Assembly: GCA_030167865.1 (NCBI GenBank) | Contig: JALAGF010000378.1 | Location: 1-48,876 of the forward strand | Length of the DNA stretch: 48,876 nucleotides | Origin: Craspedostauros australis | Lineage: Eukaryota | Direction: 5' to 3' | In this document: positions 289 to 46,700 of the stretch, piece by piece | Numbering within the stretch: the stretch's first letter is position 1 | Layout: the number at the start of each line of letters is the position of its first letter | The notes under the pieces: generated by a model | Databases searched by the model: none | Told to the model about the DNA's origin: nothing | The model's input: the letters and a program-made list of their open reading frames with translations, nothing else | Position numbers and translations under genes: made by a program

Positions 289-3200
289 CTATTGTTCGTA
301 TTCGTAGATTAGCATGCCATTTGCCAACAGCCATGCAACTTGTGAAGACGACATGTCATGCATGTCGTATCGCAGAGATTGTGAAATTGAATCAAAGTAT
401 TGGCTGTGGGTTTGATGATGTCGCCGCTTGGATCTTCGTGTGCGCACAATGCCATCATCAGCTGCTGCCGTCTGCGCCTGCTGGAGTTGGTTGAATGCGA
501 ACTCGTTGCAGCATTCGATTGCAGCAATGTACCGGAGCATGGGAGCGTAATCCAGACAGAATTGATGCTGCACCTGTATTGTTGAACCTCCAGCAACTCC
601 CGGTTCATTTCGCGATGGCAGTGCTGCTGACCGTCGTTGCAATAGATGCGATACTCGAGCAGGGTCGCCAATCACACTCTGCAACAGACTGAGCTGCAGT
701 CTGCTGGCTTCTGTGGTTCTGATTTGCGTCCGAGTGTCGCGCAGCACAGTTTGATCCCACAGCCCTGGAATTCGATGTGCGCCGATTGCGTTGGCGAGCT
801 CAATCCCAGTCGATGAATGAGACGATGGGATGACGAAATGATCTTCGTCAAAGGACTTGCCGTATGAGTAGATCTGCTCGTCGACGTCGAATTCGTTCGC
901 ATTGCAGTCGTCCACGGCGCTGTCACCTGTGGATGCTTGGCGCAGGCTGTTGGATGCCGATATCAACGACGATGAGGACGATTTGGGCGACGACGACGAC
1001 CACGAAGTGGATGATGATGATGATGTGATGGAGGTATCAAACCGCAGTCGATCGAGCGGCATCATCTCGCCTCGGACCTGAGCAGCCAAGATCATGAGTT
1101 CCTTTTCTCGCTTGGTCGGCTTGATGACGAGACAATCAGCCTGCCCGTAGAAAAAGTCGTCATCCTTCCATCCGGTTGCCATCAGCATCTCCTCTGTGGG
1201 TCTGCAAGAGTGCACAGAGTAGTGCGGAGTTGAGTATCAACATGCAGTCGAGTGCGGAAGTACAGGTAGTGTGGACAACACAATGATGGAAGAATCAAGG
1301 TGGAAGCGAAGTGAGAAAGTGTCGAGGATGGATGATTCCATGGATGACAGATCACTTCGTTGCTTCATCACCTCGCACATATCATAGCATGACCAAGAGC
1401 ATGGCCACAAGCACAAGCACAATTCCATTTGCATTCTCATACATGATATCAAGCATCTGAGCCCCAACCGAACTTACCGCTTCGATGATTCAGTCTTGCG
1501 ATGCTTGGTTTCATTACCATGGAGAGCACCTGCATCAATCAGATCACTCCCAAATCCCAAGCATGCGCCACACAAGTCAATTCCATCGCCCATGCGATCC
1601 ATCATATACGCTGCGTCACTCCTGTCGAGGGCCGCAGCAAAGAAATCATCATCGTCAACGCCATTGTTTGTGGTGGTGGCGGTAGTGGTGTTGTGAGTGC
1701 ATTCATTCCTTTTTGTGGTGCTGGCGGTGCTGATGTAGTTGGAATCGACACCGGGATTGGCATGGATACTGATCTGGAGTTGTTGTTGCTGCTGCTGCTG
1801 CTCGTGGTGCTGACAATGACGTTGCACATTGGAAGGAACAATTGCATGGGGGCAGACCATTGGAGTGGTTTGCATCGTGGTGGTCTCATTGTCATTGTTG
1901 GTGACAGCAACATACTGGATGCTGTGCTGCACACGGCAAGGAAGTTTCCAACCGTTGGGAAGGAGACGATCGTGGTGCACCGAGCCATTGTTGATCGAAA
2001 GATGCTGCTTCCGTCCATCCTTGTGCAGGATGCGAATTGGCGCACTCCATTGGAGAGACTCGATGTTGCTGGCTTCCATTGGTGGAATGACGGCGACGAT
2101 GGTCGTATCATTCATCACGATTGCTTCAGGACACAGTGTAGATCCGGCGTACACCTCAACTTGGTTGATGAGAGAGGTGAGGTGCATGCCTGTGATTGTG
2201 ATGATGGTGTGCTTATCGTGTGCGACTTCACGCGGATCGACGCGGAGAATGAGCGGATGTTGCGTCGAAGATTGAAGAGAGTGCGTGTTCTTGACACCGC
2301 CGCTTCTGCCACTGCTGCTTTCCCCATTCGCAAGCTCAGGAAGAATATGCTCGAGCTTCATGTGCAAGGAGGATGATGACAATGATGATGATGGTTGTTC
2401 CGGCATTGTGAGTGTTGCATTCGATGCATTAGTTCCGTTTCGTCCCATCTCTTTCACAACCACCTGCAGCTCGTTCAACAGCTGCCGCACATCACAATTG
2501 CACAGCTTCGCAGCTGCTGCCATGTGATGCTGAATCTGTGCAGCACTGAGAGCTTGGTTCAGTATCAGCTGCTGCTGCTGTTGTACAACCTGTATCAACA
2601 ATGGAACACATTCTGTGGGCGTCGGACGTGCGGTGATAAAGTGTTCGCATTGGATGTTGCGCAGCTGTGGTGGTCTTGTATTGGCCGTCAGGAAGATGGG
2701 GCATTTGGCCGTCTTGGCAAGACCAGAGAGGGCAGTCCAAAAGCCTGAATCTTCGTTGGCGTCATCAACAATATCCACTTCATCGATGAGGATGATTGTT
2801 AATGAGGATGCTTCAACGCCGGTGTGAGCTCCAGATGAAGAAGATGGCGAAGTGGTTGTAGAGTTCGCTGTTGCTTCTGAGTCTTGAGAGAGTGGCCAGT
2901 TGTTGTCGTCGTCGTTGTTGCCACTGCTCTGTACAAATGAAGATGCCGCTGCTGTTTGATTGTTCTGTCTGTGTTGGAATGTGAAAAAGGCCTCTCCACC
3001 TGCTGTTGAAGTCTTGCGCCTTCGGTTGAGCATGTCAAGAGAAGAGCAGCTCTGTGTTGCCTCTTGGATTCGATGTCTCAATGATGCCGCTGAACGTGCT
3101 TCGGTCGTGTTGATTTCCAGCACCTTGCATCGCGCCTGCTTCGCGACTGCATGCACCAAGCTGGTTTTGCCACTGGATGTGGGACCTGTGATGAGGCACA

Positions 3201-5747: not shown

Positions 5748-6223
5748 GCGCACGCAATCGACTTTAGCGAAAGCCAACATGCACGCTATCAATACAAAAA
5801 CATTCAGCGTCGTATACTCCGTACATAGTCGGCGATTCGTCATGTCACATTTTCACAGAGAACAGAATCGCAGTTCGTCCCTCACCGAAATCGTGACATC
5901 AAAAGAGGGAAGATGTTGGCGCCGCAAACTTCGTGACATGTCTTCAACATCGATTGTCGAACTCGCGCCAAGTGAGGAGCAAGAGAAACATCAAACCGGA
6001 GACGACACATGGTCATTATCGCAAGTTCCATCCTCACATCTCATTCCGTGACGGCAACAATTCTGAGCGTGACAGCAAGTGCCACGCACCTCACGTTGGA
6101 AGAGAACACACTTGCTCGAATAGAGACAGGCAAGTGCGCACAATCAAATTACGAGCCACCTTCAGGGCATCGAACAGCAAGCGGAACCGAGAGCATCCCG
6201 TCGACACCAACACGCAGGGCACC

Positions 6224-9532: not shown

Positions 9533-9588
9533 GTATTGAAACGCTATCGCGAGTGACTCTCGCAGACTGACGAGATATTGGTGGCTTC

Positions 9589-9969: not shown

Positions 9970-10935
9970 CTATTTCCCCTCCTCTTTCTCTTGCATGGCC
10001 TTCTTCATCATCTCCAGAAAGGAACCATCGTTCTTGATTGGAATGGATGCCAATGACGGTGTCTCTTTTTTGCTTTCGCTCTTCTCCTCCTCTTCCTTCT
10101 TTTGCTGCGCCAACGGGACGTAAGAGAATTCATCTTCCTCCTGCTGCGCATTGGGTTTGGACTTCTTGTTGCTGCTGCTGCTGTTTCCGTTTCCGTTGCT
10201 GCTTTCATTATCATCGCCTTCCGCATTGTCGACATCCAGATCGATTCCAGCTTTCTTGAGATTCTTCTTGCGCAACTTGGCATCCTTCATGCGCTGACGT
10301 TTGCGGCGGTTCTTGGCTGTCTTTTGCTCCTGCTCCATCTGCGCCTGCGTCATCTCTCGGCGATGCTCCTCCTCCGATCGACGCTGCTTCTCCACCTGGT
10401 CAATCTCCTTCCAGCGTTCCATCTCGCGTGCCCGGGCATGGCGGTAGACGTGGAACTCGCTGGATCCGGCACCCGCCGTGGATCCGTACGGGTTGACGAC
10501 CTTCTCGGCCTTGACTGTTGTATTCAATTGGATTGGATTGAATTTGAATTAGCGCCCATAGTATTGCGTGAGCGGGTATAGAAAAGGAAGGAATGGATCA
10601 ATGAATGGAATAATCAGTGGAGTCACGTCCGTAACGGTGAGAAGAGAGTCAATGAAAGTCGTGAAGGATGGATGGAAAACTCAAGAGAAGAGACGCCATA
10701 CCTTTCGAATGGCATGTCACCACCTCTCTCCATCTCCATCTCAAAGCATGAAATCAAGCACAAGCACAAGCATAGCAGCAAGGGATGTGTCAAGGCACTG
10801 AAAGTTCACGATCGTGGACGCACCTGACGACGACTTGGCCTCCGCTTCTTTGCCTCCCTTCGCTTGATCGTACGGAATACTCTGCACATTCTTGTTGCTG
10901 TCCGCGTAGGACTGGACGGATGTGTACCTTCCCAT
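9970..10935 (-). CDS. PRKRIP1: PRKR-interacting protein 1 homologue (spliceosome-associated); exons 10935-10824, 10514-9970; 218 aa
   Basis: Signature VVNPYGSTAGAGSSEFHVYRHARAREMERW followed by a charged coiled coil and KTAKNRRKRQR. The intron CAG|GTGCGT...CAACAG| joins G+TC = Val in frame. Confidence 0.9.
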
Positions 10936-14111: not shown

Positions 14112-17100
14112 ATGATGCTGCTACAGACGTTGCTGCTGCTATCGCATATGAGATGCATACAAGGCCGTCATGCCTTCCCCAACATGCATCGCACACACGA
14201 AAGATGGCACATCGACGAGAACGATGCCACGACAGAACGATTCCACAGCCATTCGCAGAGTCGGCAGCGGCAGGATTATTACGTCGAGAAGGAGAGCAAC
14301 GCATCACGTCAGTTGAAGAGCGATTCGAGCAACTATCGACTACGGAGCAACGACGATGTGCAGATTACTATTGGCATTGCGAACGTGGGGAAAGGGAGAG
14401 AAGAAGAGACGGCCAATGGAAAAGGCAAAGGCAAAGGCAAAGGGAAGGGATCGCAAGATTCTTCGTCACTGACAGATTCGTCGTCATCGCCACGACCAAA
14501 AGCAGGGGGTGTAATATCACGACCATCAAAAGGTGGCAAATCAGGGACATCGCCTTCATCGTTGTTGTCACCGTCATCATCTGGATCACAGTCAAAGGGG
14601 TCGAAGTCGTCGCGGACACCATCGCAGTCAAGTCCGACAAAAAGCGACAAATCCTCAGTCAAGACGGGCAAATCGAGAACTTCCAAGATGAATTCGAACT
14701 CCTTCAAAACAGATCCGCCGACGATGATCGTCATGATGCCGACAATGTCCTCGTCGGGAGATGGTGGCACGAGACCGCCGATCATCTTTTCGCCGAAGCC
14801 AACGCCCTCCATGCCGCAACCAACGATGGTACCGCAGCAACCGTCACAAAGCCCCATGAGCCCCACAACGCAGACACCGGTGACCCAATCGCCGGTTGCC
14901 ACAACGTCACCTAATCTACAGCCAACCACGCCATCGCCCAACGCCATGCAACCCACGATATCCCCGACCACACCGACGGATGCGCCGACACAGTCACCGG
15001 ATGTAGGGACACCAACAACAACCGCGCCCAATATTCCACCGACCGTTACCATGATGCCTGCATCGACACCCACATTCGCACCTGGCACAAGATGCGCGGT
15101 GGGAGATGACGGTAGCTTCGGTTCGCAGGAAGGCGCGTCCTTGGTGACAGACTTTGCGTACGAAACCACCGTCACACCCAGCGTGACCGTGGAAATGCTG
15201 AATGATGATATCCTAGGCGATGTCGAGGACCTCATGGCCGGATTTATCTTGGAAGAATTGTTTACGGAATGCGACAATGAGGGGGTACGATCCATATTTG
15301 ATGTCCAGATCTCGCCAACGCAACGGCGTCCTCGTCAACATTCGAACACGGGCTCTCGTCAGTTGCAAGCAGACAAGTTGGACGGCTGGAACACCATGCC
15401 GCAGGATACAGTCATTGATGGCGGTAAGTTGTGCTTCATCGGCTTGCTGAAATGAATGTACAAAGTTGAGATGCACACATTTATGATGGACACATGCATG
15501 CATATGTGGAGCAGTGAATGCGGTGCGCTGTTGGCCGTGGAGCAACAATCAGCCCACTTGCCCGTTCACACATTCTCGCCGATTGTGCATGCATGATTTC
15601 TCGATTTCAAACAAATGTTGATGTTGACACTGACGTTCCCAATCCTTTTCTGCCCCTCCAACACTTTTGTGGTGCTACACATGTTCTTGCTAACCTTCTG
15701 GAAATTCTTGTATACTCTACTCTACACCAAATTCACAACAGTCGAATGCTCCACGCAATCCAATTTCCCGTGTTTCGTGATTCGCGGTCGAGTGACATCG
15801 TACAGTGATGGCGCGATCGACCCAACTTTGGATGAGGATGTCAGGAACGCCGTGAGAATGGCCTTCGACGATGGCGACTTGCAAACCGTCAATGCTGGAT
15901 TGCTGGATGTGTCGTACCGAGATACCGATCTATTCCCCATCCCAGGCGAGGATAGCAGCCCTGCACCGACCATGACAGCAGCACCAACGTCAGCTCCGAC
16001 ACGGCCACCATCTGATCCCACTATTCGGACTTCTGGAACTGATGACGGCCCTGCGTTGGAGCCATGGATGATCGCCCTCATCTCAATTGCTGGAGCATTC
16101 GTGCTTTGCTTGGGATACCTCTGCGTCCGCACGCCAAGCCACCGAATTCTGACAGCAAGCGATGATGAAGATGATGGCTCGTCCTCTGGTTCATCAGATG
16201 ACAGTTCCAACAGCGGGTCACGTCAAAGCCAAGAAAATGAATTCGAACCGCCACGGATGCCAATTTTTCGACCACCAATCACTCGTCCGGAAGAAGGGAA
16301 CAATGGCGAAAGCAACAATGATGAAGGCAGCAACAACGACAATGACGGTGATCGTGGGGACGACGACAGCAACAACGGCAATGACAACAACGGTGATGAC
16401 AACGTACAGAACGACCCTCAAGACGGTTTTGCTGACAACGGTAACAACAATATCATGATCGCTTTGAGCACGGAAACCGAAGACGACCCATCATCATCGT
16501 CGTCTTCCTCTTCTTCGAGCGGAGATGGCGAACCAGAAGATGATGACAACGACAACACGTACAGCAATATCGACGATGCGTTTGGGTTGCACCAGGCCAC
16601 CAGCACTCGCAGCATGGATGCCGAAGGCAAGTACTTCAGCGACCATGGCGATCAAGGCGAGAACGAGAGCACCTTGACACCTGCCGAAGCCTTCGGTGAA
16701 GCATTCAGCGACAAGCAAAGCGTGGAGGCACCGGCGATGGTGCAAAGCTTCGGTGGTGATAGCAGTAGCGGCAGCGGCAGCAGTTTCGGAAGCCGTAGCC
16801 GCAGTAGCAGAAGCAGTGGTTCCGGAAGTCGCAGTCGCAGCAGCAGAAGCAGCAGCATGTCCGGCAGTCGCAGCGGTTCGGGAAGTTACTCGAGCGGATC
16901 ACGCAGTGGATCACACAGTGGATCGCACAGTGGTTCACGCAGCGGAACCTACGGCAGCAGCGTAAGCATGAGCTTGAACAAGGAAAAACAGGATGGACCT
17001 TCGCCGTTGGCTGCCGCTGCGGACACCGAATCAGCCGGCTCTTTCGATTCCAGTGACGCCGGCCGACCGGCAGGCTCTGCTGGCCCACCCGTGGTCACGG

Positions 17101-23408: not shown

Positions 23409-26400
23409 TCATGTCGCTTGCTGCTTCAGGATGTACTCGTTCTCGCAGACCTGGCCGATGTTCGGACGGAACGCTTGATCGTACGTCAAGCACTGGCGGA
23501 TGAAGGCCTTCGCGCCTTCCGAAATACCCGGCTTGTCCGGAAAGTCGACATTCTGGGCGTTGAGCATGGTGTGGTCCGTGAGGAGGGTGTCTTGTGTCTT
23601 GCCTTCGCCAAAGGGTCGTTTGCCAAACATCATTTGGAAGAAGATGACGCCAATCGACCAGACATCCACTTTGTTGCTGATGCGGACGTTGCCGGACGTG
23701 ACGAAGCATTCCGGAGGAAGGTACCAGTACGTCCCAGCACCTTGGCTGGTGAGCTCCATGCTCTCCGCTGGATCCGGCGTGTCAACGATCTTGCTGAGGC
23801 CGAAGTCCGTGATCTTGACGTACCCCGCTTCATCGAACAGGATGTTTCCTGGCTTGAGATCGTAGTGGATAATGCCCTGGCGGCTTCCGTCCGCAGAGCC
23901 TTGGCTGAGGTACTGCATGCCGGCCAGAATCTGCAGCAGGATGGCACGTGCTTCGCGTTCTGGGAGCCGGCGTCGTTCCTTCAGCACGGCGTCCAGGTCC
24001 GTCCCGTTGCAGCATTCCAACACGGTGGCGAATGAGTTGTTATCAATTTCAAACACGTCATACAACGAGACAATTCTGGAATGGCGCACGTTTCGATGGA
24101 TCTCGTACTCTCTCGAGACATGCTTCGTGTAGTTCTCCTTCTTGGAATCCGGCCATCGAGGATCGAGCTGATGGATCTTCACTGCGACTTCGCGCAGTTC
24201 CACAAGATCGTACGCTCTCCAAACCTCGGAGAATCCTCCTTTACCCAACAAGGAATGCAGGATGTAGCGCTCATTCAGCTGTTGATGGTTATCGATGGTT
24301 GTTGTTGGTGACCGTGGTGGTGGAGATGTGTGGATGTGCGAGTGCGTGATGAAAGAGGGGATTCGACGAGGTGAGACCAAGAGACGACAAGACGGAGAAA
24401 GGCAGAGGACACAAACGAGCAAAAACAACAAACACATATTCACGGAGAATTGAACTGACGTGCAAGACCCAATCACGGTAACTTCTTGAGTGGCTGCGTC
24501 ACCACTTACCTTCGGTCTGGAACAGAAACGCGATGAATCCTCGCTCGCGACACGCTTCAATGCACGGTAATGCGCTGCCCGTTCGGCATTCAGATTGTGC
24601 TCAACATCCAGCAGCTGACGCTCCTTGCGTCGCACTGTCTCCAGTTGCATGTGCAACGCCTCCTTGCGTTCCACATTGAGAAGCCGCGATAACGCCCCGT
24701 CTTCTGCGTCCCCTTTCGCAGGCGTCTCGGTGATCATGGTTTCGATGCGCTTGCGCTGCTTGCGCAATTCCTTCTTCTTGTGTTCCAAATCCTTCGTGGC
24801 CTGCCCCTCCTCCCAGCTCTCCACGGCACGCATTCCGGCGCGTGCATAGACGATACGTCCCAACCGCGCCCCATCCGCAGTCAGCTTTTCACGCAGATCC
24901 TTGGCCTGCTGTGCGCTCTTCCAGCGCAAGAGATCTTCAATGACATTGGACGTCTGACCTTCGCGCTGCTTGCTGTTGCGTTCCGTGTCGGCCAGATGCT
25001 GCTTGGCCTTGTTGAGTGCCGATTCGAGGGCGGTGTGCAGGATGGTGCGGTTGTTGGCCAAGGCCTTGAGCTGCTCGTCCTTTTCCTGGAGCTGGAGTTG
25101 CATCTTGTGCATGCGGTCCTTCAGTTCCCGGTTTTCGGCCGCTGCTTTGCTTCTGTCATCTCTGGACGATTGCAACGCCAATGCCGACGACGATGTTGTT
25201 GTTATTGCTGTGCTTGGCATTGATCCTTCCGATGTAGCAGCCAGTGTCGCCGTGGATGAGGATTGTGCGGAGAGGGGTCTGGGACTGATGGCGGCAGATG
25301 ATCTCTTTCTGCTGACACCGTTGCCAGTTGCGGTCGAGAAGAAGTCGGAAATGAACTTGTTGTTGGCTGGAGGCTTCGACTTGCGCGAGTGCGAATGGGA
25401 TCGATCGCGCGAAGTCTCTGAACCAACGGTCGCATTGTCCTGCTGTTGCTGCTGCTGTGGTGGTGGAGTGAATGAAAGCTGCTTGGTCTTGGAGGCGTCA
25501 TCGCTGAATAATCGCACGCGCTTGGCTCGGAAGGAGGTACCGGTGCTCCTTGCTGGGCTGTTCCCAGGGCCGCTGGTCTTATCCGTCAGCGACGTCTGCT
25601 TCTTCTTTGGCGTTGATTTACGTTTCTGCACAACGGGAGGTGCAAGTTGTATTGTTTCGGAGACCATCGTCCATTGTCCATCGTCCAATTCCCATTGTGA
25701 CATCAAGAAGATGGCAGACATTGGCGGTGTTGGCGACGATGACGGTGTTGACGTCGTTGTTGAGCGGGTTGGGGTAAGAGGAATGGAATGTCAGTTGAGT
25801 TGGATGCAAGTTTTGTCGTTGTTTGTGAGAACACGAAGTCGGATTCGCAGAAGCGGAAAAGTCATTTCATTCGTGTCCGACGGAAGCGCAACTTGAAACG
25901 TGCACCCAAATTGGACAAGAAGCGTGCCGTCACAAGCTCGCAGGAATGCTCTCTGCCACATTGAGACAAGGAAGTAGTGTGCACACGCGAGGCAACAAGA
26001 CAACAAGACAACACGAGCAACTCACCGCCGAAGAGGGCGTCGACGACGCGTGACCCAACATCAAGCTGCGGGCCGCTGATGGCTTGACCAGCATGCGTTG
26101 CGGATGGCCTGCCTTTGGATGGTGCGGAGAGACGGTGGCAGGTGGCGATTCTTGCACCGTGCCCAGCCCGCTGCTGCGATGCACATGCGAAGTGAGCAGC
26201 GTGTTATTGGACGCGGTCGATTTGGGTGAACCATCCGAAACGGGAGGCGTGGGCAGCGCGGACAGGCTCTTGTTGTGATCGTGATTGGTCTCGAAGAGCA
26301 CCGACATGGGGAGCTTGGACAGCTGGTCCTGCGGCTGTCCCTGGAAGCCGAACGGGGACGTCGCCGGTGTCGAGGCCATCTTGCGCATGTGCCGTTCGGT

Positions 26401-29728: not shown

Positions 29729-30715
29729 TCAGAAGAAGTCGTCTTCGTACGCCTCTGCCGCTGTGTTGTCTGCTGTCCCATCCATATCTGCAGTACTCGT
29801 CATGTTGTCATCGGTATACAGTCGGTCATACGATCGCAGCTCCTTCTCTTTCTCGGCCGCCTTCCTCTGCTGTTCCTTCTCTTGGCGGGCCTTCTGATAC
29901 TCCTTCTTCTTCTGCCGTTGGATCTCACGCTGACGTTCCTCCTGTTGCGCCGAGAGATCCGGGAACGATTCCTCCTTCGTTTTGTTGATCTGCCGCACGA
30001 TTGGGTTGTTCTTCTCCACCATGCACCGTCTCACGTTGTCGGGTCGATGGAATCCCACCTGTCCGTCGACCATTTGATTGGTCTTCTTCAGATTCTTCCA
30101 CCGCGTGTACACAACATACACGTGATTCTTCTTGCATCCCTCGATGCTATTTGCCTTCACCAACGCCGAACAATCCAGCAGCAAGTCTTCCGTTATGTCA
30201 TCCATCGTCATGCCCGGCTTCATGCGCAAGTATACGTGCGCCGAACTCAGATCGTCCACATGGAACCACACATCTATCGAGATGTGTATGCGTATATATG
30301 CGTATTCGTATGTTTTCGCACATGCAGGTGAGCGTGTGCGTGATTTGAGTGAAAATAGTGGAGCACGTGGCGCAGTTTGTGATTGATTGCGTGAGCACGT
30401 TTGGAGCATGGGTGTGAGATGCATGTCCCCTTGTGCACATGCAGGATGCGCACAGCATTATTCAGTAGAGCAAAGTCTGCTTGACCTTGCTGATTGTGGT
30501 CACCAAAGCGACAACGCTTCACTCTGTCGCATCACTAACGACCATATCGCGAAGGGCGCACTGTGCCATAGTCGTACGTGTGGAGTCCTTCGCAGTGCTT
30601 CTTGTGTTCACGGACCTTCGGGAAGACCGTACTTGATGAGATCTTCATTCTCGTACTTGTCCCGTCCCATGTAGATGGTGAATTCGCCGCATCTCGACTT
30701 GAAGTAGAGCACCAT
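29729..30715 (-). CDS. CCDC25: CCDC25 / NFACT-R (DUF814) protein; exons 30715-30616, 30273-29729; 214 aa
   Basis: MVLYF...[37 protein letters not shown]...[11 protein letters not shown]...GQVGFH...YEDDFF. The intron GAAG|GTCCGT...GATAG| is in frame. Confidence 0.93.
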
Positions 30716-33549: not shown

Positions 33550-33576
33550 TTTGACAGCACTCCAACAGACACCAAG

Positions 33577-36500
33577 ATGGGCAAGAAGAATCAGAAGGGC
33601 GGAGCCGCCGCCATCATGCTCAACAAGACGGGCAAATTCATGGTGCTGGATGCGCCAGGAGTCAAGCAGCCCGAAGCAGCCGCACCGGCTGCGGCACCGG
33701 CCGCCGCATCCAAGCAGCAGAAGGAAGGCGCGCAGGGACGCCGTGCCAATGCCTCCGCAGGACCGCGCATGGACAACTCCGGGAAGAAGCTGATCGGAGG
33801 AGACTCCTTCGTGCAGCGCACCATGGACCCAGAATTCCTCAAGCAACGAGAGGAGGTCTACGCCAAGATCAAGGCCCGACGCGAGGCAGAGTTTGCCACC
33901 AAGATCCCCGTCGCCATCACGGTCACCCTGCCCGACGGCAAGGTCCTCGACAAGACCAAGCAGGGCGAGGACTACATGACCTGGAAGACCACTCCCTACC
34001 TCGTCGCGCAGACCATCAGCCAAGGTCTGGCCGACAACTCCATCGTTGCGCGCGTCACCTACGAGAAGTTCGCCGACGACTACGATGCCGCCGAGGACGG
34101 CATGGAGGGAGAGGACACGCTCATGGACGCCATGGACGACGGTGGCGTCGAGAACGATGACGCCGCCAAGAACACCCTGCTCTGGGACATGACGAGACCG
34201 CTCGTTGGCCCTGTCAGCAAAATAGAGTTCCTCAAATTCGCCGACGACAAGGATGCCAAGACCACCTTCTGGCATTCTTCCGCTCACATGATGGGAGAGG
34301 CCATGGAGAACCTCTTCGGTTGCAAGCTCACCATCGGACCACCACTTGCGGGAGGTTTCTACTACGATTCCTACATGGGAGCGGATGCATTCCGTGAGGA
34401 TGATTGTGAGTACCGACGTCAGCTGCGTATGATTGATTGGGCATGGTTAAGGATGTGCACATGGATCTGCATATCCCGATCGTGCATTCAAGAAGTGGGT
34501 TGGCCTTCAAATGGCCATTTCCGCTTGTGGTGATCACATGCTGCTGCTGCTGCTGTTCTTGTTTTCGTTGTGACAGGCTTCGTGTATTCACAACGCACAC
34601 ACTAGCGCATCGCAGCAGTATCCTCGTCCGTCCATTCCATCATGTCCTTCTCACAACAACAACTGCAATCACTGCACAATGACAACCATGTTACATTCAT
34701 TCTGGACTCACAACAACAACAACAACAACAACAGACAAGCCAATCGAGGCGAAGGTTTCCAAAATCACCAAGCAGAAGCAAAAGTTTGAACGCATGGTCG
34801 TCACAAAAGAAGAAGCCTTGGAACTGTTTGCTGACAATCCATTCAAGCAGGAGATTTTGACCACCAAGGTCGCTGATGGAACCCGCACCACAGTCTACAA
34901 ATGCGGCAATTTGATCGACTTGTGTCGCGGACCGCACGTGGCGCACACGGGAAAGATCAAGGCGTTTGCCACCACCAAGCACTCTGCCACCAACTGGCTC
35001 GGTGACACCGACAACGATTCGCTGCAGCGCATATACGGTATCAGTTTCCCAGACAAGAAGATGCTCAAGGCATGGAAGGAGAACCAGGAGAAGGTAAGAT
35101 CACAACTCAACAGAGCACGCCGCAACACACACAACAAAGCACACCTTGTGACACCATGGCACTACACCATTGCATGCACACGTAGCAGAAGCAGCAATGG
35201 TGGCAGCGGTTACAATACAACCGCACGACGATGCAATGACGATATCCGATACGAATCTCATTCTCAGATCCAAAATACACATGATCGAAACATCTATCCA
35301 ACTCGCTGATTATTCTGAGCATCAACACCAAGTCCGCGCAACCTTTTCTTGCATTCAGGCACAGGCAACCAACACGATCAGCACCAACTTCTGACTAACA
35401 CATCTCTTCCTCCCCCCTTGTTGCTTTGCACACTCATGTTCTGATCCGATCCCATGCAAACCAAACCGATAACAACAACACGAATGATGCAAACGATGCA
35501 AACACTCGGCTGCGGACGAATAACAACACAAAACACCAACGCAACAAACAAACAAACAAACAAACAAACAACACGCACAGGCCAAGGAGAGAGATCACAG
35601 ACGAATTGCTGCCAAGCAAGAGCTCATCATGTTCCATGATCTGTCGGCTGGAAGTGCGTTCTGGTTGCCACACGGTGCCAGAATCTACAACAAGCTCATC
35701 GAATTCATCAAGAAGCAGTACTGGGTGCGCGGCTACGACGAGGTCATCACACCAAATGTTTACAACCTCGATCTGTGGCACAAGTCCGGCCACGCCATGC
35801 ACTACAAGGATGCCATGTTCTGCTTCGATGTGGAAGGGCAGGAATGGGCCATGAAGCCAATGAACTGCCCAGGTCACTGTCTCATGTTCGGCAACTCCCT
35901 CCGTTCATACCGTGACCTTCCAATCCGATTCGCAGACTTCGGTGTGCTGCACCGCAACGAGCTTTCTGGTGCCCTCAGCGGTTTGACCCGTGTCCGCCGC
36001 TTTCAGCAGGACGACGCCCATATCTACTGCCGCGAGGACCAGATCGCCGATGAAGTTCTTGGTGCTCTGGAATTCATGAAGTATGTGTACGACATCTTCG
36101 GCATGACTTACAAGCTTGAGCTCTCCACAAGACCAGCGAAGGCCCTTGGTGAAATGGAGCTGTGGGACCGCGCCGAGAGCGCCCTTGCCGAAGCCATGAA
36201 CAGATTCATCGGGGAAGGCAACTGGAGAGAAAACCCAGGCGACGGTGCCTTCTATGGACCAAAAATTGACATCAAGGTCATGGACGCCATGGAGAGAGTG
36301 CACCAGTGCGCAACCATCCAGCTCGACTTCCAGCTCCCACGCAGATTCGGACTCACGTACAACACCGGAAAGAAAGAGGGAGATGGCGAGCAGTTCGGAA
36401 TCCCGGTGATGGTCCACAGAGCCATGCTTGGAAGTGTGGAACGCATGTTCGCTGTCTTGTGCGAACACTACGGTGGAAAGTGGCCGTTCTGGCTCAGCCC

Positions 36501-37278: not shown

Positions 37279-37893
37279 CTATGACTCTTCCTCGACTGCT
37301 GCTTCTGGTGTGGCCTCCTCGTCGGCCTTCGCCAATTCGGGGTCGTAGACGGCCTTGAATTGCGCGGTGAAGGCGATGTCGTCACCCATCTTGTATCCCT
37401 TGGCGATCTCTGGGATGTCCTCGAGCACCTCGGCTTCGCCGTCGCTGCCTGGAAGGTACTTGAGTCCGTAGGCCTCAACGGTGGACTGGATGGTGCGGAT
37501 AACGCTCTCCTGGACAGCAAATCCGCGGATCTGCGGCAGGGCGTACGGTGGCACCTGCCCCTTGCGGAATCCAGGGAAGTTGGCCTTCTTGGAGGCATCC
37601 TTGAGCACCGTGGTGTGCAGTTCCTTGATCAGGGCGCCCTTGGACTCGGTCTTCAACCAGAAGCTGTAGACGGCGCCCATGTCGCTCTGGACATCTGGCT
37701 CCTCATTCATTTGCTTCATGATGGTGTTCTCGATGGTGTTGACGGCTTCCAGAACCTCGCCGCCCTCCGGCTCTGGCTTGAGCTCGTAGGCCTGCAGTCG
37801 CATCAGCGACGATGGGGCCGACGACTTGGTGACGACGAAGGCGGAGCATCGTGCCGCAACGAGCAATAACAGAAGAGCGCGGATGGATTGCAT
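37279..37893 (-). CDS. Plastid-targeted stand-alone trigger factor ribosome-binding (N-terminal) domain protein
   Basis: Signal peptide MQSIRALLLLLVAARCSA-FVV (ASAFAP-type) plus transit peptide; trigger-factor signature FPGFRKGQVP. No PPIase or C-terminal domain. Confidence 0.85.
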   Translation of the reverse strand: MQSIRALLLLLVAARCSAFVVTKSSAPSSLMRLQAYELKPEPEGGEVLEAVNTIENTIMKQMNEEPDVQSDMGAVYSFWLKTESKGALIKELHTTVLKDASKKANFPGFRKGQVPPYALPQIRGFAVQESVIRTIQSTVEAYGLKYLPGSDGEAEVLEDIPEIAKGYKMGDDIAFTAQFKAVYDPELAKADEEATPEAAVEEES

Positions 37894-38503
37894 TGTAAAG
37901 TAGAGTGCTTAAGTATAATAGGAGGCACCGTGGTTCGAAATGGAAAGTATGGATTGGGCGAATGGAATTGCTGTGTTCTGATCAGTCTCGATCGGCACAC
38001 TTTTTCGCCGTGGCGTCAAACATCGTGATCCATGGTGTCTGAACGGTCGGGGCAAGCGGTCTGGACCAGCAACCGGATCCTCGCCCTCGCAAACAGCGTC
38101 ATCGTGGTCTGTATTGGCAGCACATGGCGAGGGTTGCCGACTGACGCACACGAAAAGTTTGCTTGAGCACCCATCACACATCAAACGCAAATCGCGGTCG
38201 ATTCGTGACACCTTACTCGTGATTAATCAATGAGTCAAAGGAATCGTTTGGAGACCTCACACCAACCAAAAAAGTGAGGCCACGCTTCGCGGTTCACGCT
38301 TCGCGAGACAAAACACGATCAAACAGCTTCGTTCCTCTTGTGCAATGAATCCAGCGACACCTCCCACCAATCTGGTGAGATTCAGCCAGTCATCGGTTCG
38401 ATAGTTGGAGTGTTGCAGATAGCACAACAATGTACGACAACACCACACTCTCCTCTGCTTACCGACCGTCCGACTACACTTCAAATTGAACACCACCGTA
38501 AAG

Positions 38504-40420
38504 ATGCCAAAGCACGAACGAGAAGAACGAGCCTCTCACAAGAATCCTCGACCGTACGATCAGCGCGGGCGCGGTGGCAATGGCAATGATAATCGCAACC
38601 GCAGGGGCGGTCGGGATGGCAACAGCCACGACAGGAACCAACGTCGCAAATGGAATCCCAACGATGACATGGCGCCCTGCGCCACATTCGATGAAATGAA
38701 TCTGAAGAAGGATCTGATCAAGGGGATTTACGCTTACGGCTTCGAGAAACCGTCAGCGATCCAGCAGAGGGCCATCCGTCCCATCATCCGAGGACGGGAC
38801 GTCATTGCACAATCGCAAGCAGGAACGGTGCGTTGCGTTGCGTCGGGCCAAGTCATGCTATGATGATGCACTGCATTCGGCCATGTTTTGCTCTTCTTTG
38901 GATGGATTGCGTTGCATTGCATTGCTTCCACATGCAGCCTCATTTGTGCTTCGAGTACTCCATCCTCATCTTCAATCCCCGTGTTCGTTCTGATGCCCAT
39001 GTTTTTCACCGCCTTACGTCGTTGCAACGTTCACATTCATTCGGTCGTCTTCACACAATTGAATATACTATGATGCTTCATGCAATGTTTCATTCACTCT
39101 GTCAATCCATTGCCATAATGTTCAGGGTAAAACGGCAGTCTTCACGATCTCCGGCTTGCAATTGCTGGACGAAGCATCGCGTGACTGCCAGGTGCTCATT
39201 CTGAGTCCAACCAGAGAACTTGCCGAGCAAACGCAGAAGGTCATGCAGTCCCTTGGAGATTACATGAACGTGAGTGCGCCACTGCTTGAACGATACGATT
39301 GTTGCGATGCCGCAACATGCACCATGACTTGTAACCAGATGCTGATGAGGCTGGTCATGAAAGCTGCATTCGTTCTTTCTTGGGAGAGAACACAAAGTGC
39401 TCGTACCCTACTCCTCCGGTCATCTCTGCACCCGCGGTCGGAGTACTTACGAGCGCTCTGCAGACACTTCAACAACATCAGATCCTTTCTCACATTTCGC
39501 TGAATTCTTCGATGCGCACTGACTCCACACTTTGCGCGCAACTCCAACGTACTGATGGGCTCCATAAACAAACATGCGCACAGGTCAATTGCCATGCCTG
39601 TGTAGGAGGTAAATCGTTGGGACTCGATCTCAAGGAACTAGAAGGAGGCGGCGTCCAAGCAGTGTCGGGAACGCCCGGTCGTGTCTACGATCTGATCCGT
39701 CGCAACGCCCTGAACATGAAGAACCTCAAGGCTCTCATCTTGGACGAAGCAGACGAGATACTCAGCAGGGGGTTCAAGGATCAGATTTACGACATCTACC
39801 GCTACATCCCACCGGCCTGCCAGGTCGTCCTGATGAGCGCTACTTTGCCACCGACCATCTTGGACATGACGAGGAAATTCATGAACGATCCCATCCGAAT
39901 TCTCATCAAGCGCGACGAACTCACGCTGGAGGGCATCCAACAGTTTTACATTGACGTCGAGAAGGAAGAATGGAAGTTCGATACCCTCTGCGATCTTTAC
40001 GACACCCTCACCATCACGCAGGCCGTCATCTTTTGCAACACCCGCACCAAGGTGGATTGGTTGGCGGACAAGCTGCGAGAGAAGAAGTTCACCGTCAGTG
40101 CGATGCACGGAGACATGGATCAGGAGGGACGTGACAAGGTGATGAGCGAGTTCCGTGGTGGAACTTCCCGCGTCCTCGTGACGACGGATCTTTGGGGACG
40201 CGGTATCGATGTGCAGCAGGTCAGCTTGGTCATTTGCTACGATATCTCGGCGGACAAGGAGCTCTACATCCACCGCATCGGACGATCCGGTCGATTTGGG
40301 CGCAAGGGTGTGTCGATCAACTTGGTCAAGGACGAGGAAAAGCCCACCCTCAGGAGCATCGAACAATTCTATCGCACGAAAATTCGGCCGATGCCAGCCA
40401 ACGTTGGAGACTTTCTGTAG
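38504..40420 (+). CDS. EIF4A3: DEAD-box helicase, eIF4A-III/FAL1-like; exons 38504-38827, 39126-39269, 39584-40420; 434 aa
   Basis: Q motif [40 protein letters not shown]; the eIF4A-III-typical [25 protein letters not shown] and [18 protein letters not shown]. Two phase-0 introns. Confidence 0.9.
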
Positions 40421-40732
40421 GGCTTGAACGTGGAAATATAAGGTGTAATACGCTTGACGTGTATGTATTACGCAATGATAACATGTGCTAATACCAGTAT
40501 GGCCAATCGATTCCAGTAGCAAGAACATTAGCCTGATAGAGGCACACACTGGTACGTATGGTTTACGAGTACTGTTATTCATCCAGAGGGTGACAGCGTT
40601 CACGGCACGTTCCTTTTGCGCTCCCGTCACTTCACGATTCCTTTTCCGTTTGGCTGTGTGCACGTGCAAAGACTTGGATGCCTCTCATTGAAGGCGGCAT
40701 GTTTCTCTTCGTTGTCGTTTGCATCTCCTGCA

Positions 40733-43700
40733 TTACTTGCTGAGCAGCGGTCGGACGGCGTCCCAATCAAGCGGCGCCTTAAAGTTGCGCCTCTCGATGT
40801 AAGACATGAGCACTCGGCAGGCACCGTCGCCAAACTCATTGCGCAAGCGGATGATTTCTTCGTCTGTTGTGCTGAAATCCAGGACATCGTCGCCCATCTC
40901 CTCCAGATCATGATCCATGTACCCTTCGCTGACCACCGTCTCGACCATGATGTTGTTGGCGGATCGCAGGTATTCGTATGCCGACGTCCATTTGCCGGAG
41001 AGGTAGTGCCTGATACCAAGAGCGAAGGTCTCGGCAAATTGGTCCGTGACATGCTGTCTCATGGCGCGCAGGTCGGGGTCATCCTCCCAAATCGTGGGGC
41101 TGTACGCTTCGGCATCCTCCTCTGCCTGTTCAGGCCTTCGTTCGATGAGGAAGAAGTCGACCCCGCGATGTCGTGCGTCGTACGTGAAGATATCCTGCTT
41201 GACCTTGCTGCCTTTCACGTAGACGGTGTCAAGATGACGTAGCTTCTTGCGGCACTGTCGTGAAAGAATCTCCTCGACGGCCTTGCTGAGCAGAATCGTG
41301 ACGCCGTACTGCTTCGTTGCGCTCATCATTCTCGATGCCATGTTGACATGGGGTGACAGGTACGTGGCATCGATCTTGTACTCGCTCCCAACCGCGCCCT
41401 CAACCGCCCAACCAGCATCCATTCCGTAGATGACTTCGACGCTGTACGTATTCACACCAGCACTCAGTCGGAAGTCCGTCTTCCATTTCTTGAGCTTGTG
41501 ATCGCGGTGAAGGCCGGCGAATGATTTTAGCATTCCAAGCAACGCACGGTCCGAGAATGATTGGATTCCTGGAAGCGACGCCAGTTGCAGGGTATCGCCA
41601 TCGCCATGGCCTTTGCGTTTCTTCCTACCTCCTCTCATGTTGCGCAAGGTCGGCACCTTGCGGGCGGTGCTTTTTCCGTTCCCGTCGAACACCACAGCTG
41701 TTGCCAGTCTCTGCTTCTCATGGACTTCCGAAAAGTCGCCGATACGGAACACCATCAGGAAGGCCGAACCAAGATTCTTGTTGCACTGGCCACTATCTCC
41801 CAACGCCCATCGATACACCTCGTCGTGAACAACCTTCGCAACGTCATTGATGAGTACCATGACGAGCCCATCCAGGGCGCGGAGCTGATGACTGAAGCCG
41901 TTGATGGCAACGAATCCAAACAGAGCGTAAACCCGCTTGCCTGGAACGGTCGGGTTGAACACCACAGTTTCACCATCCTTTGTCCTGGCAAGGTTGGAGG
42001 AGATGATGCCTGCTCCAGCAACACCCCAGCACTTTCGGAGCAAGTCCGCGATTTTGGCAATCGCGTTGATGAGCTGTTTCGTTTCGTAGTTTCCAATTTC
42101 TTCGAGAGCATCGTTGTCCGATGCCGACGATCTGTCATCTCCGTCCTTCCCGTCATCCTTCGTTTGTTCTGCCAATGGGTTCTCGGCATCTGTTGAACAC
42201 AAACATAAAAATGAATAACCAGATGGAAAATCAAATGAATGGGTGAGTAAGTTGGGGAGTGGGTTTGGGTGAGTGGAGTTGGATCGCATTGCAGGCTTGG
42301 CACCAAACATCCGCTTCATGAACGTTGATGCAAAAATGTTATGCAACGCAGCAGCATCAACAGCAATGGCCATGTCATGGCATGCCGCACGGCCCTCTAC
42401 CTCATCTACTGTATGAGTGCTGTGGGACTTACATCGAAGGATGATTTTCAACATTTTTTGCAGCGGATCCAAAACCAGTCGAATTGCGTCACTGCGGAGG
42501 GCCTGCAATCCAAACAATCCAAGGAAGAGGATTCCAAACAGCAGGAAGAGAAGCCCCATGTTTCTGTAAATCCAGATTCAGACCCAACCACGTTCCGCAT
42601 TCCATCCAAAAACAATGGCGCCGTGTATGATGGGAATGGCGTCGTAGCACGCAATTGTGTGTGTGTGGGTGCACGCATGGATGTACGTTTGGGTGAGTGA
42701 GTGAGCATTCATATATATATTTGACACTATTGCGCGCGCAGAATCTCCGCTTTGTAGGGAGCTTCCAATGTCATGCAATGAGGCTCCGACACCCGAAGTA
42801 TCACGGCAAGCAACTCAGATGATGCACAACAAGGCCAACAGCTCCCGCTTGAGCAGTTGACAGCAATCAATGCAGCAAAGTGACTTACGAAAGAGCGATG
42901 CTTGGATTTTCATTGTAAAATGCAGTCACAGTGTACTCAGCATCGATTGGACTGCCGAATTCTTCCCGAATACCACCAGGTCGAACTCCGATCGCATTGG
43001 CAAAATACCGCGCGGACGTGTCCGTGGCTGAGGCAGTATAATCCCACACCTCACAGACTGCCGGAGCTTCTGATTTCATGTCATCGCTGCAAACCGTGAT
43101 GACGCCATCAGAGCGCTGGAAGTCACAACGCACGGGCATGAGTTGAGCCCAGAGCACGTAGGTGCTCTCGACATCACCCTGAAAGAATTCCGGTTGCGGA
43201 ATGGACGCCATGTTCAGCCACGAATTCACTGCTGTTTCCAAGAAGGCGCAGTCAGTGTCGGTGGAAGTCTTGGCAGCAATGTTGTTGGCCTGCAATAGAT
43301 TCATGTATTCTGTTGCAACCACATTGTTTTGCTTCAACGAATCGATGATCGGGAGCACGATGACAATTACCACTCTGAATCGTCATGAGACATTCATGGC
43401 CAATCGATATTGGTTTGTTGTTGCGAGAATTGCAGAACAGAATCGTGTGTTATCTCGTCGCAGACGAGGGAGAGCACGGAGCGAGAGAGCAAAAGCGTGA
43501 ATGTGTGAGAACGTGATGCGAACAATTCAAATGGCACACCATCGATTGAATTAGACTGGACTGGACTGCATTTACTCAAACGCAATTCGCGGCACCAATG
43601 CGTGTGCAATTCGCAACACCCTTTCATGATGCCTTCAACCTCCAAATGATCTCGAAGTTGAGGAAACACTTACAGAAGTATCAGTGCGCGATGGGAGTTG

Positions 43701-46700
43701 ACAACCATCAGCGCCGTTCCAATGGTTGCAGCATTCTTCAGCCGTTCATCCTCTTCTGATGTACCCTTGCTATCTCGCGGACTTCTCTCGCTCTTCTCCA
43801 AAGCATTAGCGTTGTCCCTCTCATCCTGCAAGATTGCCATAGAGTGGTTTGAAATGCGCACATGGTAGAATGCCAGCATTCAGCAGAAAGGGACCATTGG
43901 CAGTGCAACGTTTGGTGAGATGGAGTGGGAATCGTCGAAAACATGCTCGGTTGCAACACCAGGTCTCGATCACAACCGATTTTTACAACGGGCGATAATG
44001 GGGGACTGGTGCACAGCTGTGGTAGCAATTCCAGTGATATCAGCAATTGCATCAGCAGCAGCGATGTCGTCAGCACACAGCACTCAGCAACACTTCGCAA
44101 CGCATCACAACTCACATCTGTCTTCTTGTATCGCGTGTTGGTGCGCTGTTTTTCCAAACCCAGAACTTGACTTTGACTGAACAGCCAGTTGTCCAGTCCT
44201 TCGCGTTTCGCGGGGCTAAAAGACGTGTTGATCCACATTTGCTTCCAGTGCCGCACCAACCCAAACAACCGCAAGGTCGTGATGCCCAGGATGAAACGCC
44301 CTCTCATCGCAGTCGCGTAGTCGTCGGAAAGAACGGAATCCAACGATGCCTGGAGGCGGGAGAATTCCCCGCGTCGCGTGCACATGTCTACATCCGAGAG
44401 GCAGCTGAACTCTGGAATGAATGTGAGCAACGCCAAACCCTCGAAAAAGAGATGGAAGGTGTTCACATGTCGCGCGGTGGACGGTGCAAACGCCTTGTCC
44501 GTCGTAATGAGGTCGTAGTAACCGGCCGGGCGAATGATTGCTTCAAAGAGGAGCTCCAACGCAAGAATGCTCCAAATCACGCTGTTGTTAGAGGACACGA
44601 TGTAGATGATGGGAAATGCGAAAGAAAAGTTGTAATTTCACCAAGGCAAGGCACAAATGTGTGAGAATACGCCTGCGATGCAAAGTTGCTTTGGTCTGTG
44701 CATCAGCCAATGCGCAAGCATGTCCCTTTCATATGCTTGTTGAGCTGATGCCACACAAACGACACAATGCATGGCAATCGCATCGCAACGCATCTTCGCA
44801 CAACCATCTCGTTGACGGCTGTTCGCGTTCGCGCTTGCATCTGCACTTACACACCGGCGACTGCAACTCCGTAATCGAATTCCGCGGGAATGAAGGCCAG
44901 GTTGGCCAGTTCCAGGAACAGGAAGGAGAAGCTGCAGCAGACGAGAAGATTGATCACAGTGATCCGGAGCCTGCAGGCGAAGGGCGCGTCACCGAACAGA
45001 AGCTTGGTGACGATCATTTTGAGGTTCATCCTTTGCTTCCTGTAGTACGGAACCATGCGATCCTCGAAGAACTGAATCGGCCACATGATGGCAATCCAAA
45101 AGCAATCTGCGAAGTGCTGCGCGGCGCCGACTTCTTCTGGCTTGTCTTGCATGGATCGCACCGTCCTGCCCGCGGCGCGGTATGCCGATTGAATTGCAAC
45201 CGGATCTCGAAGGGGTTCCATCCAATCTGTGAACGGGACAGAGGCGGAGCAGAACAATATCCGTAGTTCAGCAATGTTGATCATGGAGAAATTACGACAA
45301 TGCAGAAGTTATGAAATCGTTAGCTTGGCACTGCATGACCATGCATGGTCGAAAACCAAACCAAATCAAACCAAACCAAGCCGATGAAAGGAAACAATGT
45401 TGCTGATGCAAGCACCAACATGCAATGAAATGCGATGCAACGCCATCTCCATTCACATGCATTTTGGCGAATCTGCACCGAATTTTGCGATTGCACTTGT
45501 GTATACTTACTGGAATCCGCCCGCTGTTCCATCCCCGTGTCGGCACGGGTGACGGTGTAGTATCTGGCATCCTCATCGAAGTGAGCATGCTTGACCGTCG
45601 ACAGAACATACGCGTACGGGCCGCTCCTCTCCGCTTCGGATTGACCCTCGCCTTGCGGAAATCCAACGGCATTGACGGGCGCGATCGTGCAAAGATCCTT
45701 CGGATAGTCCTTCTCGGCAGTTACATTGAGCAACGTGAGGTTGACCAGGACTGTCTCGTTGATGGCGAATTGCTGATTGCGCTTGTTGGCCGCCTCTCCG
45801 GAGACGCTCGCGCTGACAACCGCGGCTGCCGCAGCCACATTCTCCCATTCGTTGTTCGCATCTTGATTCTTGAAAACCTCGATCGCCGCCTCCAGCTCGT
45901 TCCTTCCTGTGCCCGTCGATCCGGACCCATTGCGTGAACTGATGGCCAACGATAGGTTTTGCCGTCGTGTTGACCGTCGCTTGCGTGATCGCACGCTGCC
46001 CAACAGACCGTGTCCCGAACCGGAGGATTGGGAATGCGTTGTCTCGTCGCTTTGGGATGCCAGCGAGCCAGACAAGGGAGCGTGGATTTTGACCGATGGG
46101 CGGCGCAGCGTGGCGGAGTGTCGCCTCGATGTTTCGACGCCCTGCGCATTTGGAACAGAGATGGAGAGCGGTCTCCGGCGCTCCACACGATGGTGTTCGT
46201 GCGGAAGCCCGGGCGACAACGAGTCCAATCCCGCTCTGGCTGGTGCGGAATTGAAGGATCCCTCCGACTCAGCGTGAGACGTGCGCCGCGAGGCCGGGCG
46301 GTACGATGAGCGGCGCTGCCGACCGGGGTCAATGAGGTCGTTGATGCTCATGGGTTCGTAGCCGTACTTTTCAAGATCTTCACCGTTGCCATCCTCGGCC
46401 TCGGTTCCCATGGAGTCGTCCCGGACTGGACCGAGAGTCGGATTCCACTGGTAGTCCATGCTCATGGGCTTGTATCCCAGGTTCTCGAATTCATCCGCCT
46501 CCTCTGACTCGTCAGTAGTGAGGATCATGCCCCCCGGCGATTGTCGTGCTTCGGAACCAGCGGTGAAAGGCCTGTCCCCAAGCCCGCCACGGAGGCCGCC
46601 GACGGCACCGTCGCTCATGCCAGCGCGGCCTCCGCTGAAGTGCATGGCGCTGTTGATGAGTCCTTGATCGTCATCGTCGTCAACGTCGTCAACGTCGTCA

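Follow-up and report, generated by a model that had tools for sequence, protein, structure and literature searches.

How does a spliceosome find the end of an intron when a hundred nucleotides or more before the acceptor contain no other AG? The question is raised by a stretch of 48,876 nucleotides (nt) from the diatom Craspedostauros australis (GenBank assembly GCA_030167865.1, contig JALAGF010000378.1, forward strand), which was analysed over its whole length and is referred to here as the window. Branch sites are usually found 15-40 nt from the 3' splice site, and how the spliceosome finds that site after branching is still argued, with linear search and diffusion both under consideration, as are the roles of Slu7, Prp18 and Prp22. 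An earlier note on this DNA had proposed that every intron carries a long AG-exclusion zone and that distant branch points are systematic in the lineage. In the 16 introns described here, the AG-free zone that precedes the acceptor has a 5' edge that coincides with an over-represented motif of branch-site form, (T)TCTCAC or one of its CTAAC and TTCAC variants. This observation is real, and the mechanism to which it points, a search for the acceptor from a distant branch site, is plausible but unproven.

The 16 introns were rebuilt from the window sequence, measure 231-487 nt each and total about 5.0 kb. All 16 begin with GT and end with AG. The donor is GT[AG]AGT in 12 of them, the remainder being GTGCGT (two), GTCCGT (one) and GTAAGA (one), and RNA confirms the GTCCGT donor as well as one of the GTGCGT donors. 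They are ordinary introns of the U2-type (major spliceosome) GT-AG class with an unusual layout. U12-type (minor) introns are recognized by a donor of the form /RTATCCTT and by a branch site, TCCTTAAC, that is 10-26 nt away from the acceptor. This class was rejected: none of the 16 donors has that form, and the motif is farther out, at 54-200 nt. Minor-spliceosome components were not found in diatoms, according to one survey (PMC11347168).

Support for the intron models that is independent of the reading frame comes from two directions. The RNA evidence consists of assembled contigs of run X1, in which 42% of the sampled words of 28000-37900 were matched and which were compared with the window over 25600-45599. 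The contigs skip exactly three introns, from which it follows that run X1 is RNA, and the three introns they cover (30274-30615, 38828-39125 and 39270-39583) are all spliced as modelled. Solved homologues account for three more. The three exons of the threonyl-tRNA synthetase (ThrRS) gene, which are separated by introns 1 and 2, are colinear on chain 1nyq_A (residues 43-110, 122-232 and 239-620), and intron b of the tousled-like kinase (TLK) gene forms an unmatched insertion of 74 residues exactly at the junction when compared with TLK2 chain 5o0y_A. Six of the 16 introns are thereby confirmed by RNA or homology. In addition, the gene for a large cyclase-domain protein has one open frame of 1506 amino acids (aa) that spans six introns, of phases 1, 2, 0, 2, 2 and 1.

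The remaining models raise the concern that acceptors were placed at the first AG after an AG-free run, which would make the whole pattern circular. Ten of the 16 introns were modelled from frame continuity and splice consensus, and open frames are weak gene evidence by themselves in this window. The window is 53% G+C and strongly depleted in TA, with a frequency of 0.021 against approximately 0.06 for other dinucleotides (AG is at 0.058). Stop codons are consequently rare, and both strands carry long spurious open frames that overlap real genes, with 135 open frames of at least 120 aa present. Such an artefact is nevertheless highly improbable, since the RNA-confirmed introns have zones of 154, 168 and 100 nt and the homology-confirmed introns zones of 114, 197 and 174 nt, while the six cyclase junctions, despite their mixed phases, still give a single open frame. 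A scan of all other GT[AG]AGT sites in the window also revealed no additional clear case of an intron whose AG-free zone is short.

The AG-free stretch before the acceptor ranges from 77 to 264 nt (median 152.5) and is at least 100 nt long in 13 of the 16 introns; the lengths counted in the earlier note all agree with the rebuilt introns to within 1 nt. Its expectation that AG should recur by chance about every 16 nt also holds, as AG-to-AG gaps over the whole window average 15.8 nt, with a median of 8 nt and only 2.4% of at least 77 nt. In the exons of the same genes, read on the sense strand, gaps do not exceed 117 nt and 0.6% of them reach 77 nt. The AG-free stretches of the introns are clearly distinct from the gaps (Mann-Whitney p = 3e-12).

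Could G-poor, low-complexity 3' halves simply hold few AG as a by-product of their composition? The zones contain 26% A, 32% C, 14% G and 29% T, and G drops from 26% in the 5' intron parts to 13.7% in the zone. Simple repeats occur at 34703-34740 and 35534-35580, CAA, CAAA and CATC being the repeat types of the 3' intron halves, and AG-free runs of up to 212 nt are found antisense to coding sequence. However, 81 AG would be expected from the A and G content of the 2316 nt of zone sequence and none is seen. Among the 317 G residues of the zones, 110 follow C, 167 follow T, 38 follow G and none follows A, whereas GA occurs 84 times. As the zones are defined by the absence of AG, the count was redone in fixed windows, and the absence persists: the final 75 nt of each of the 16 introns, 1200 nt altogether, contain no AG but 40 GA, 91 TG, 47 CG and 31 GG. 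From a density of 0 at 3-77 nt before the acceptor, AG rises to 0.007-0.025 per nt at 78-177 nt and, farther than 178 nt, to 0.046-0.053, which is close to the window mean of 0.058. With normal AG density in the 5' halves there is no intron-wide strand bias. Together, the fixed-window counts and the distance profile establish that the depletion is specific to AG and polar; it affects the 3' part of the intron alone and goes beyond what base composition explains. Uniform depletion arising from strand composition, the outcome named beforehand as refuting distant branch points, is not what is seen. A compositional origin is very unlikely and is already contradicted by the zone counts and the fixed windows.

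Long AG-free runs are also found away from introns. Runs that reach 90 nt number 90 in the window, and many of these lie antisense to coding sequence; 15 runs measure 150 nt or more, of which nine are intron tails. The longest runs that are not intronic, of 178-212 nt, are located at 31748-32371 (-), 6747-6945 (-) and 13191-13393 (+); they lie antisense to the KIN17 gene, antisense to the gene at 5897-9529, and in one case between genes. These runs reflect CT-poor coding strands and not splicing.

What marks the upstream end of the intronic zones? When words were counted without bias in the sense strands of the introns and compared with the remaining window sequence, TCTCAC ranked as the most enriched non-repetitive word after the donor GTAAGT. 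There are ten copies in ten introns, with 0.87 expected (p = 3e-8), and the extended form TTCTCAC is present seven times against an expectation of 0.16. Over both strands of the window TCTCAC occurs 26 times, ten times in intron sense and never in intron antisense. The six introns that do not contain it carry CTGACTAAC, GCTAAC, GTTCACAC, CTTCACAC or tandem CTCAC. All eleven motif coordinates listed in the earlier note were found to be correct as sense-strand TCTCAC or CTAAC.

The relationship between this motif and AG is one-sided. Downstream, intronic copies of TCTCAC reach the next AG after 51-199 nt (median 91), the 16 non-intronic copies after a median of 12 nt (p = 1.7e-5); upstream, the nearest AG is at a similar distance in both groups (33.5 nt intronic, 29.5 nt non-intronic). 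The A of the motif lies 54-200 nt from the acceptor at the candidate sites of the 16 introns, and in 15 of them it is 3-82 nt inside the AG-free zone. The exception is cyclase intron 4, where 53 nt and one GAG separate the A from the zone downstream of it. That GAG is the only AG in the 1842 nt that separate the chosen motifs from their acceptors, against 69 AG in 1796 nt of equal-length stretches upstream of the chosen motifs.

A leave-one-out weight matrix placed its top site at the TCTCAC position in all ten introns that have the word. Among the six introns without it, a TCAC variant in the AG-free zone ranked first in four, namely the intron of the unnamed gene at 15424, intron a of the eIF4A-type DEAD-box gene, and cyclase introns 5 and 6; in ThrRS intron 2 and cyclase intron 1 the matrix ranked no TCAC-type site first, and the candidates there are CTAAC words. 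The full signature, a donor followed by TCTCAC, at least 60 AG-free nt and YAG, is found eight times in the 48.9-kb window and once in the 379,068 nt of 80 unrelated eukaryotic loci, which were collected by a metagenome scan with exon 3 of the eIF4A-type gene (best identity 78%). A looser version of the signature, at 0.57 hits per kb for the window and 0.17 for the loci, did not discriminate.

CUCAC fits the branch consensus yUnAy (PMC2367711). Probably, (U)UCUCAC is the branch site, located 54-200 nt from the acceptor, and the first downstream YAG is used. The putative mechanism has branching take place near mid-intron, at the conserved (U)UCUCAC or at a CUAAC or UUCAC variant, after which the spliceosome would take the first usable YAG downstream. 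Since the first YAG would be used, selection would have purged every AG from the spacer between branch and acceptor, leaving a spacer that is C/A/U-rich, G-poor and weakly folding, with no classical polypyrimidine tract at the acceptor. From this arrangement we infer both the role of the motif as branch site and the choice of the 3' site by a search that sets out from it.

Several points weigh against this reading. In six of the 16 introns the candidate motif was picked with the position of the AG-free zone already known, and a loose yUnAy is expected by chance about once per 36 nt in C/A/U-rich sequence, as estimated from composition. Ten of the intron models are those built on frame and consensus, the RNA data are assembled contigs, which cannot display branches, and composition alone yields long AG-free runs elsewhere in the genome. 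The 30 nt downstream of the motif are only 62% pyrimidine, unlike verified human distant branch points. Lastly, six introns have a CTCAC, CTAAC, TTCAC or CTTAC word 24-58 nt from the acceptor.

This last point opens the way to a different account, in which degenerate branch sites are proximal, the AG-free tail is kept for the binding of factors to CA-rich or pyrimidine sequence or as unstructured RNA, and TCTCAC is an enhancer. Besides the proximal words in six introns, it would explain why CA-rich words (CACAC, ACACA, AACAA and CAACA) are strongly enriched in introns, why the zone folds weakly (-0.127 against -0.289 kcal/mol per nt for the 5' parts) and why no pyrimidine tract follows the motif. 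On the other hand, AG avoidance goes far past what G depletion would account for, with GA, CG and TG at or above expectation, and the zone begins at the motif rather than at a set distance or a change in composition. Ten introns have none of the four words 10-60 nt from the acceptor, and we know of no reason why a proximal branch should purge AG 100-200 nt upstream. We regard proximal branching as unlikely, though it deserves serious consideration; were it correct, the strict AG purge and the conserved heptamer would need another explanation.

The candidate distant sites can now be considered intron by intron, with the position of the branch-candidate A counted from the intron end. Nearest the start of the window, the intron of an AAA-ATPase gene (previously labelled ATAD5) extends over 1202..1477 (-), 276 nt, with the ends GTAAGT..TTGCAG. 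Its AG-free zone covers 1354-1204 (151 nt), its TCTCAC is at 1316-1311 with the A 110 nt from the intron end, and the frame is open across the junction. The DUF1168/PRKRIP1-like gene has an intron at 10515..10823 (-), 309 nt, GTGCGT..CAACAG, with 163 nt free of AG and TCTCAC at 10642-10637 (A -123); the phase-1 junction is in frame with an upstream ATG. In the unnamed gene, earlier labelled a membrane protein, the intron at 15424..15741 (+), 318 nt, GTAAGT..CAACAG, is AG-free over 15553-15739 (187 nt) and carries the variant GTTCACAC, with its A at 15568 (-173); here too the frame is open across the junction.

The TLK gene harbors two introns. Intron a, at 25626..26025 (-), 400 nt, GTGAGT..GTGCAG, has the longest zone at 264 nt and TCTCAC at 25830-25825 (A -200), and is the least certain model because its basis is limited to an in-frame phase-0 junction. 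Intron b, at 24279..24509 (-), 231 nt, GTAAGT..CAACAG, has 174 nt free of AG, TCTCAC at 24376-24371 (A -93) and the support of 5o0y_A homology. Its length is a multiple of three and it contains no in-frame stop, such that a retained intron would lengthen the protein by 77 residues directly ahead of the kinase domain and leave the frame intact. The intron of the CCDC25/NFACT-R gene, at 30274..30615 (-), 342 nt, GTCCGT..CGATAG, combines a 154-nt zone with TCTCAC at 30419-30414 (A -141), and an RNA contig joins 30273 to 30616.

Both ThrRS introns are placed by homology to 1nyq_A. Intron 1, at 34406..34734 (+), 329 nt, GTGAGT..CAACAG, has a zone of 114 nt and TCTCAC at 34649-34654 (A -81), and intron 2, at 35094..35580 (+), 487 nt, GTAAGA..GCACAG, a zone of 197 nt with CTGACTAAC at 35391-35399 (A -182). 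The two introns of the eIF4A-type gene both coincide with RNA contig joints. Intron a, at 38828..39125 (+), 298 nt, GTGCGT..GTTCAG, has a zone of 168 nt and no exact TCTCAC. The best variants are CTTCACAC, which places the A at 39053 (-72), and TTTTTCAC, which places it at 39008 (-117). Intron b, at 39270..39583 (+), 314 nt, GTGAGT..GCACAG, has a zone of 100 nt and TCTCAC at 39488-39493 (A -91).

The six cyclase introns share the 1506-aa frame as their evidence and all lie on the minus strand. Intron 1 (45227..45510, 284 nt, GTAAGT..TCACAG, zone 95 nt) has GCTAAC at 45324-45319 (A -93). TCTCAC is found in the next three: at 44666-44661 (A -80) in intron 2 (44582..44850, 269 nt, GTAAGT..CAACAG, zone 89 nt), at 43920-43915 (A -90) in intron 3 (43826..44115, 290 nt, GTGAGT..TTGCAG, zone 118 nt), and at 43510-43505 (A -131) in intron 4 (43375..43673, 299 nt, GTAAGT..ATTCAG, zone 77 nt). 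The single AG between motif and acceptor in intron 4, in GAG context, is at 43455-43454, and all frames that begin there run into a stop codon. Intron 5 (42564..42888, 325 nt, GTAAGT..TTACAG, zone 161 nt) carries GCTCACTCACTCAC, in which the A at 42702, 42698 or 42694 (-138, -134 or -130) is a candidate. Intron 6 (42190..42432, 243 nt, GTAAGT..CAACAG, zone 104 nt) offers two alternatives, CCACTCAC with the A at 42270 (-80) and TTACTCAC with the A at 42244 (-54).

Three further stretches were inspected as possible introns. The AG-free run at 22451-22574 in the histone deacetylase gene was rejected, as it is coding sequence, and neither 27205-27336 nor 47919-48112 could be established as an intron.

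Similar lengths of 231-487 nt, a common two-part design and a common heptamer might also be expected if the introns were copies of a mobile introner-type element that carried its own internal signals. An all-against-all blastn comparison of the 16 introns returned only word-level matches of 11-33 nt (best E-value 0.004), and a comparison with the rest of the window gave only two matches, of 32 nt each. Introner elements, which would be alike along their length, were accordingly rejected within the window, where no alignment among the 16 introns exceeds 33 nt, and this origin can be given hardly any credence.

The spacer itself is not a classical polypyrimidine tract. Judged from the composition of the 16 introns, no such tract is present either after the motif or at the acceptor: the 30 nt after the motif are 62% pyrimidine and 25% A, the 30 nt before it 60% pyrimidine, and the last 30 nt of the introns contain 32% A, 30% C, 12% G and 26% T (56% pyrimidine). 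A structure that bridges branch and acceptor found no support either. The folding energies of the zones have a mean z of -0.2, and pairing of the 5' part with the zone gains -10.6 kcal/mol against -10.8 for shuffled sequence, with 27 against 30 inter-half pairs, such that both match the shuffles.

The 5' intron halves have features of their own. They are G/T-rich and enriched in TGCAT, with 30 copies against 7.5 expected in 12 introns (example stretches are 1380-1470, 38840-38930 and 45330-45500), and the 11 copies of TGCATG are mostly within the first 60% of the intron. Short direct repeats are also found there, such as TGCTTGTGCTTGTG and GCGTTGCGTTGCG. The TGCAT enrichment may represent a second intronic signal.

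How does this arrangement compare with systems in which distant branch points are known? In humans and rodents, exons with distant branch points and AG exclusion zones include exon 3 of alpha-tropomyosin, exon 11 of PTB and exon 23 of GABBR1 (Gooding et al. 2006, PMC1431707). According to that paper, the distant branch is needed in these exons and its mutation abolishes exon inclusion, an inserted AG is used as the 3' site, an extensive pyrimidine tract adjoins the branch point, and AG-free zones of at least 100 nt occur in about 0.7% of human introns, where they are enriched in regulated alternative exons (PMC1431707). The introns of the window resemble that class in having a long AG-free stretch with a branch-consensus sequence at its 5' end, although here the branch is predicted from sequence. 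The length of at least 100 nt is reached in 13 of 16 introns, and all are at least 77 nt. They differ in that the stretch beside the predicted branch point is 62% pyrimidine and not an adjoining pyrimidine tract, and in that what is rare in humans is found in most introns of the window, in housekeeping genes, with a C/A/U-rich spacer and nothing that points to regulation. In comparison to the human class, the arrangement thus appears to be a default in constitutive housekeeping genes, without a pyrimidine tract.

Among unicellular eukaryotes, Saccharomyces cerevisiae has introns with long distances from branch to 3' site, such as that of COF1 (PMC3239191). A branch-to-acceptor distance above 40 nt in constitutive introns would be common to both organisms, if the motif is the branch site. 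However, S. cerevisiae needs secondary structure between branch and acceptor for 3' site recognition, according to the same source, whereas the zones of the window have no excess structure and no pairing with the 5' half. Some lineages have no poly-U tract between branch point and 3' site, or have the tract upstream of the branch (PMC3488318, with reference to Bon 2003 and Irimia & Roy 2008), and the window introns are like these in lacking a classical tract next to the acceptor; in the available text, that source reports the placement of the tract, not a default spacing of about 100 nt from branch to acceptor. Pyrimidine tracts shrink outside animals, and the branch motif of P. tricornutum has been profiled, with no distances given in the part of the paper available (PMC3033335). 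Full-text literature searches, with supplements and subscription journals outside their scope, turned up nothing on where branch points lie in diatom introns or on AG exclusion in these algae; in PMC3499364 the term branch point refers only to phylogenetic trees.

Relatives of the eIF4A-type gene offer a further comparison. None of the 80 metagenome loci, which include multi-kb genomic contigs, has an intron at either of the two positions used in the window. One of these two introns sits inside the Walker A codons, and both may be lineage-specific gains. In 79 of the loci there is no intron near these positions; one locus (L008) alone has introns, elsewhere in the gene, and the first of them lies three codons downstream of the position of intron a. 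Its introns, at 355-464 (110 nt) and 1204-1317 (114 nt), have a purine- or GT-rich 5' part, a motif just after the last internal AG, and an AG-free tail. The motifs are CTCTTAC (A -43) and TTCACTCAC (A -41/-37), the latter directly after the last internal AG, and the AG-free stretches are 73 and 46 nt. These two introns hint at the same rule of a TCAC-type branch site followed by an AG-free run, here at conventional spacing. As they are about one third the size of those in the window, the comparison suggests that the window species lengthened the whole intron and not the tail alone. The earlier idea that introns may have expanded between branch point and AG tells only part of the story, as the intron seems to have been scaled up as a whole. 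A Pfam search of 28 of the 90 open frames of the five top loci detected one split gene, in L005, the gaps of which appear to be very short, judging from domain coordinates.

The window is gene-dense. Genes recognized with Pfam encode the AAA ATPase, the DUF1168/PRKRIP1-like protein, a PhyH dioxygenase, the histone deacetylase, TLK, an EVE-domain protein, the CCDC25/NFACT-R protein, KIN17, ThrRS, a trigger-factor N domain protein, the eIF4A-type DEAD-box helicase and the large cyclase-domain protein. The best named homologues of KIN17 are all from diatoms (Cylindrotheca, Nitzschia, Bacillariaceae and Seminavis), at 55-61% identity. The trigger-factor N domain protein, encoded at 37282-37908 (-), has a signal-peptide-like start that ends ..AARCSAF.., which we take to resemble the ASAFAP-type plastid-targeting motif of heterokont algae. 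Scans of the window with Rfam and for tRNAs gave no matches. Two X1 contigs depart from the window sequence at 27367 and 28736 and continue for 132 and 255 letters, neither of which has a counterpart on either strand of the window. Chimerism of the contigs, exons beyond the window or another allele could account for them.

The claim that distant branch points are systematic is sustained to the extent that the AG-free zone and a motif of branch form coincide, while its wording of "every intron" and "lineage" draws on 16 introns from one window, six of them independently confirmed. On that basis we put forward tentatively, as a possibility with somewhat more to be said against it than for it, that a default of this pennate-diatom lineage may be a tightly conserved UUCUCAC branch near mid-intron, at a distance from the acceptor of approximately 100 nt and at most 200 nt. 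The spacer after it would be G-poor, CA-rich and unstructured, and no pyrimidine tract would lie close to the acceptor. Such a default would entail a genome-wide, long-range search for the first YAG, and an early recognition of the acceptor that is independent of a U2AF-type tract beside the AG.

If this is true, nearly every intron would require a search of 100-200 nt through unstructured RNA, which would provide a natural test system for how the 3' site is found. Gene finders and branch-point predictors that are limited to about 50-100 nt from the acceptor would miss the real signal, and the design of diatom transgenes and introns should retain both TCTCAC and the AG-free tail. Across half of each intron, any mutation that creates an AG might act as a splicing mutation. 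Finally, what is an exceptional, regulatory mechanism among animals would, in a major algal group, be constitutive and the norm.

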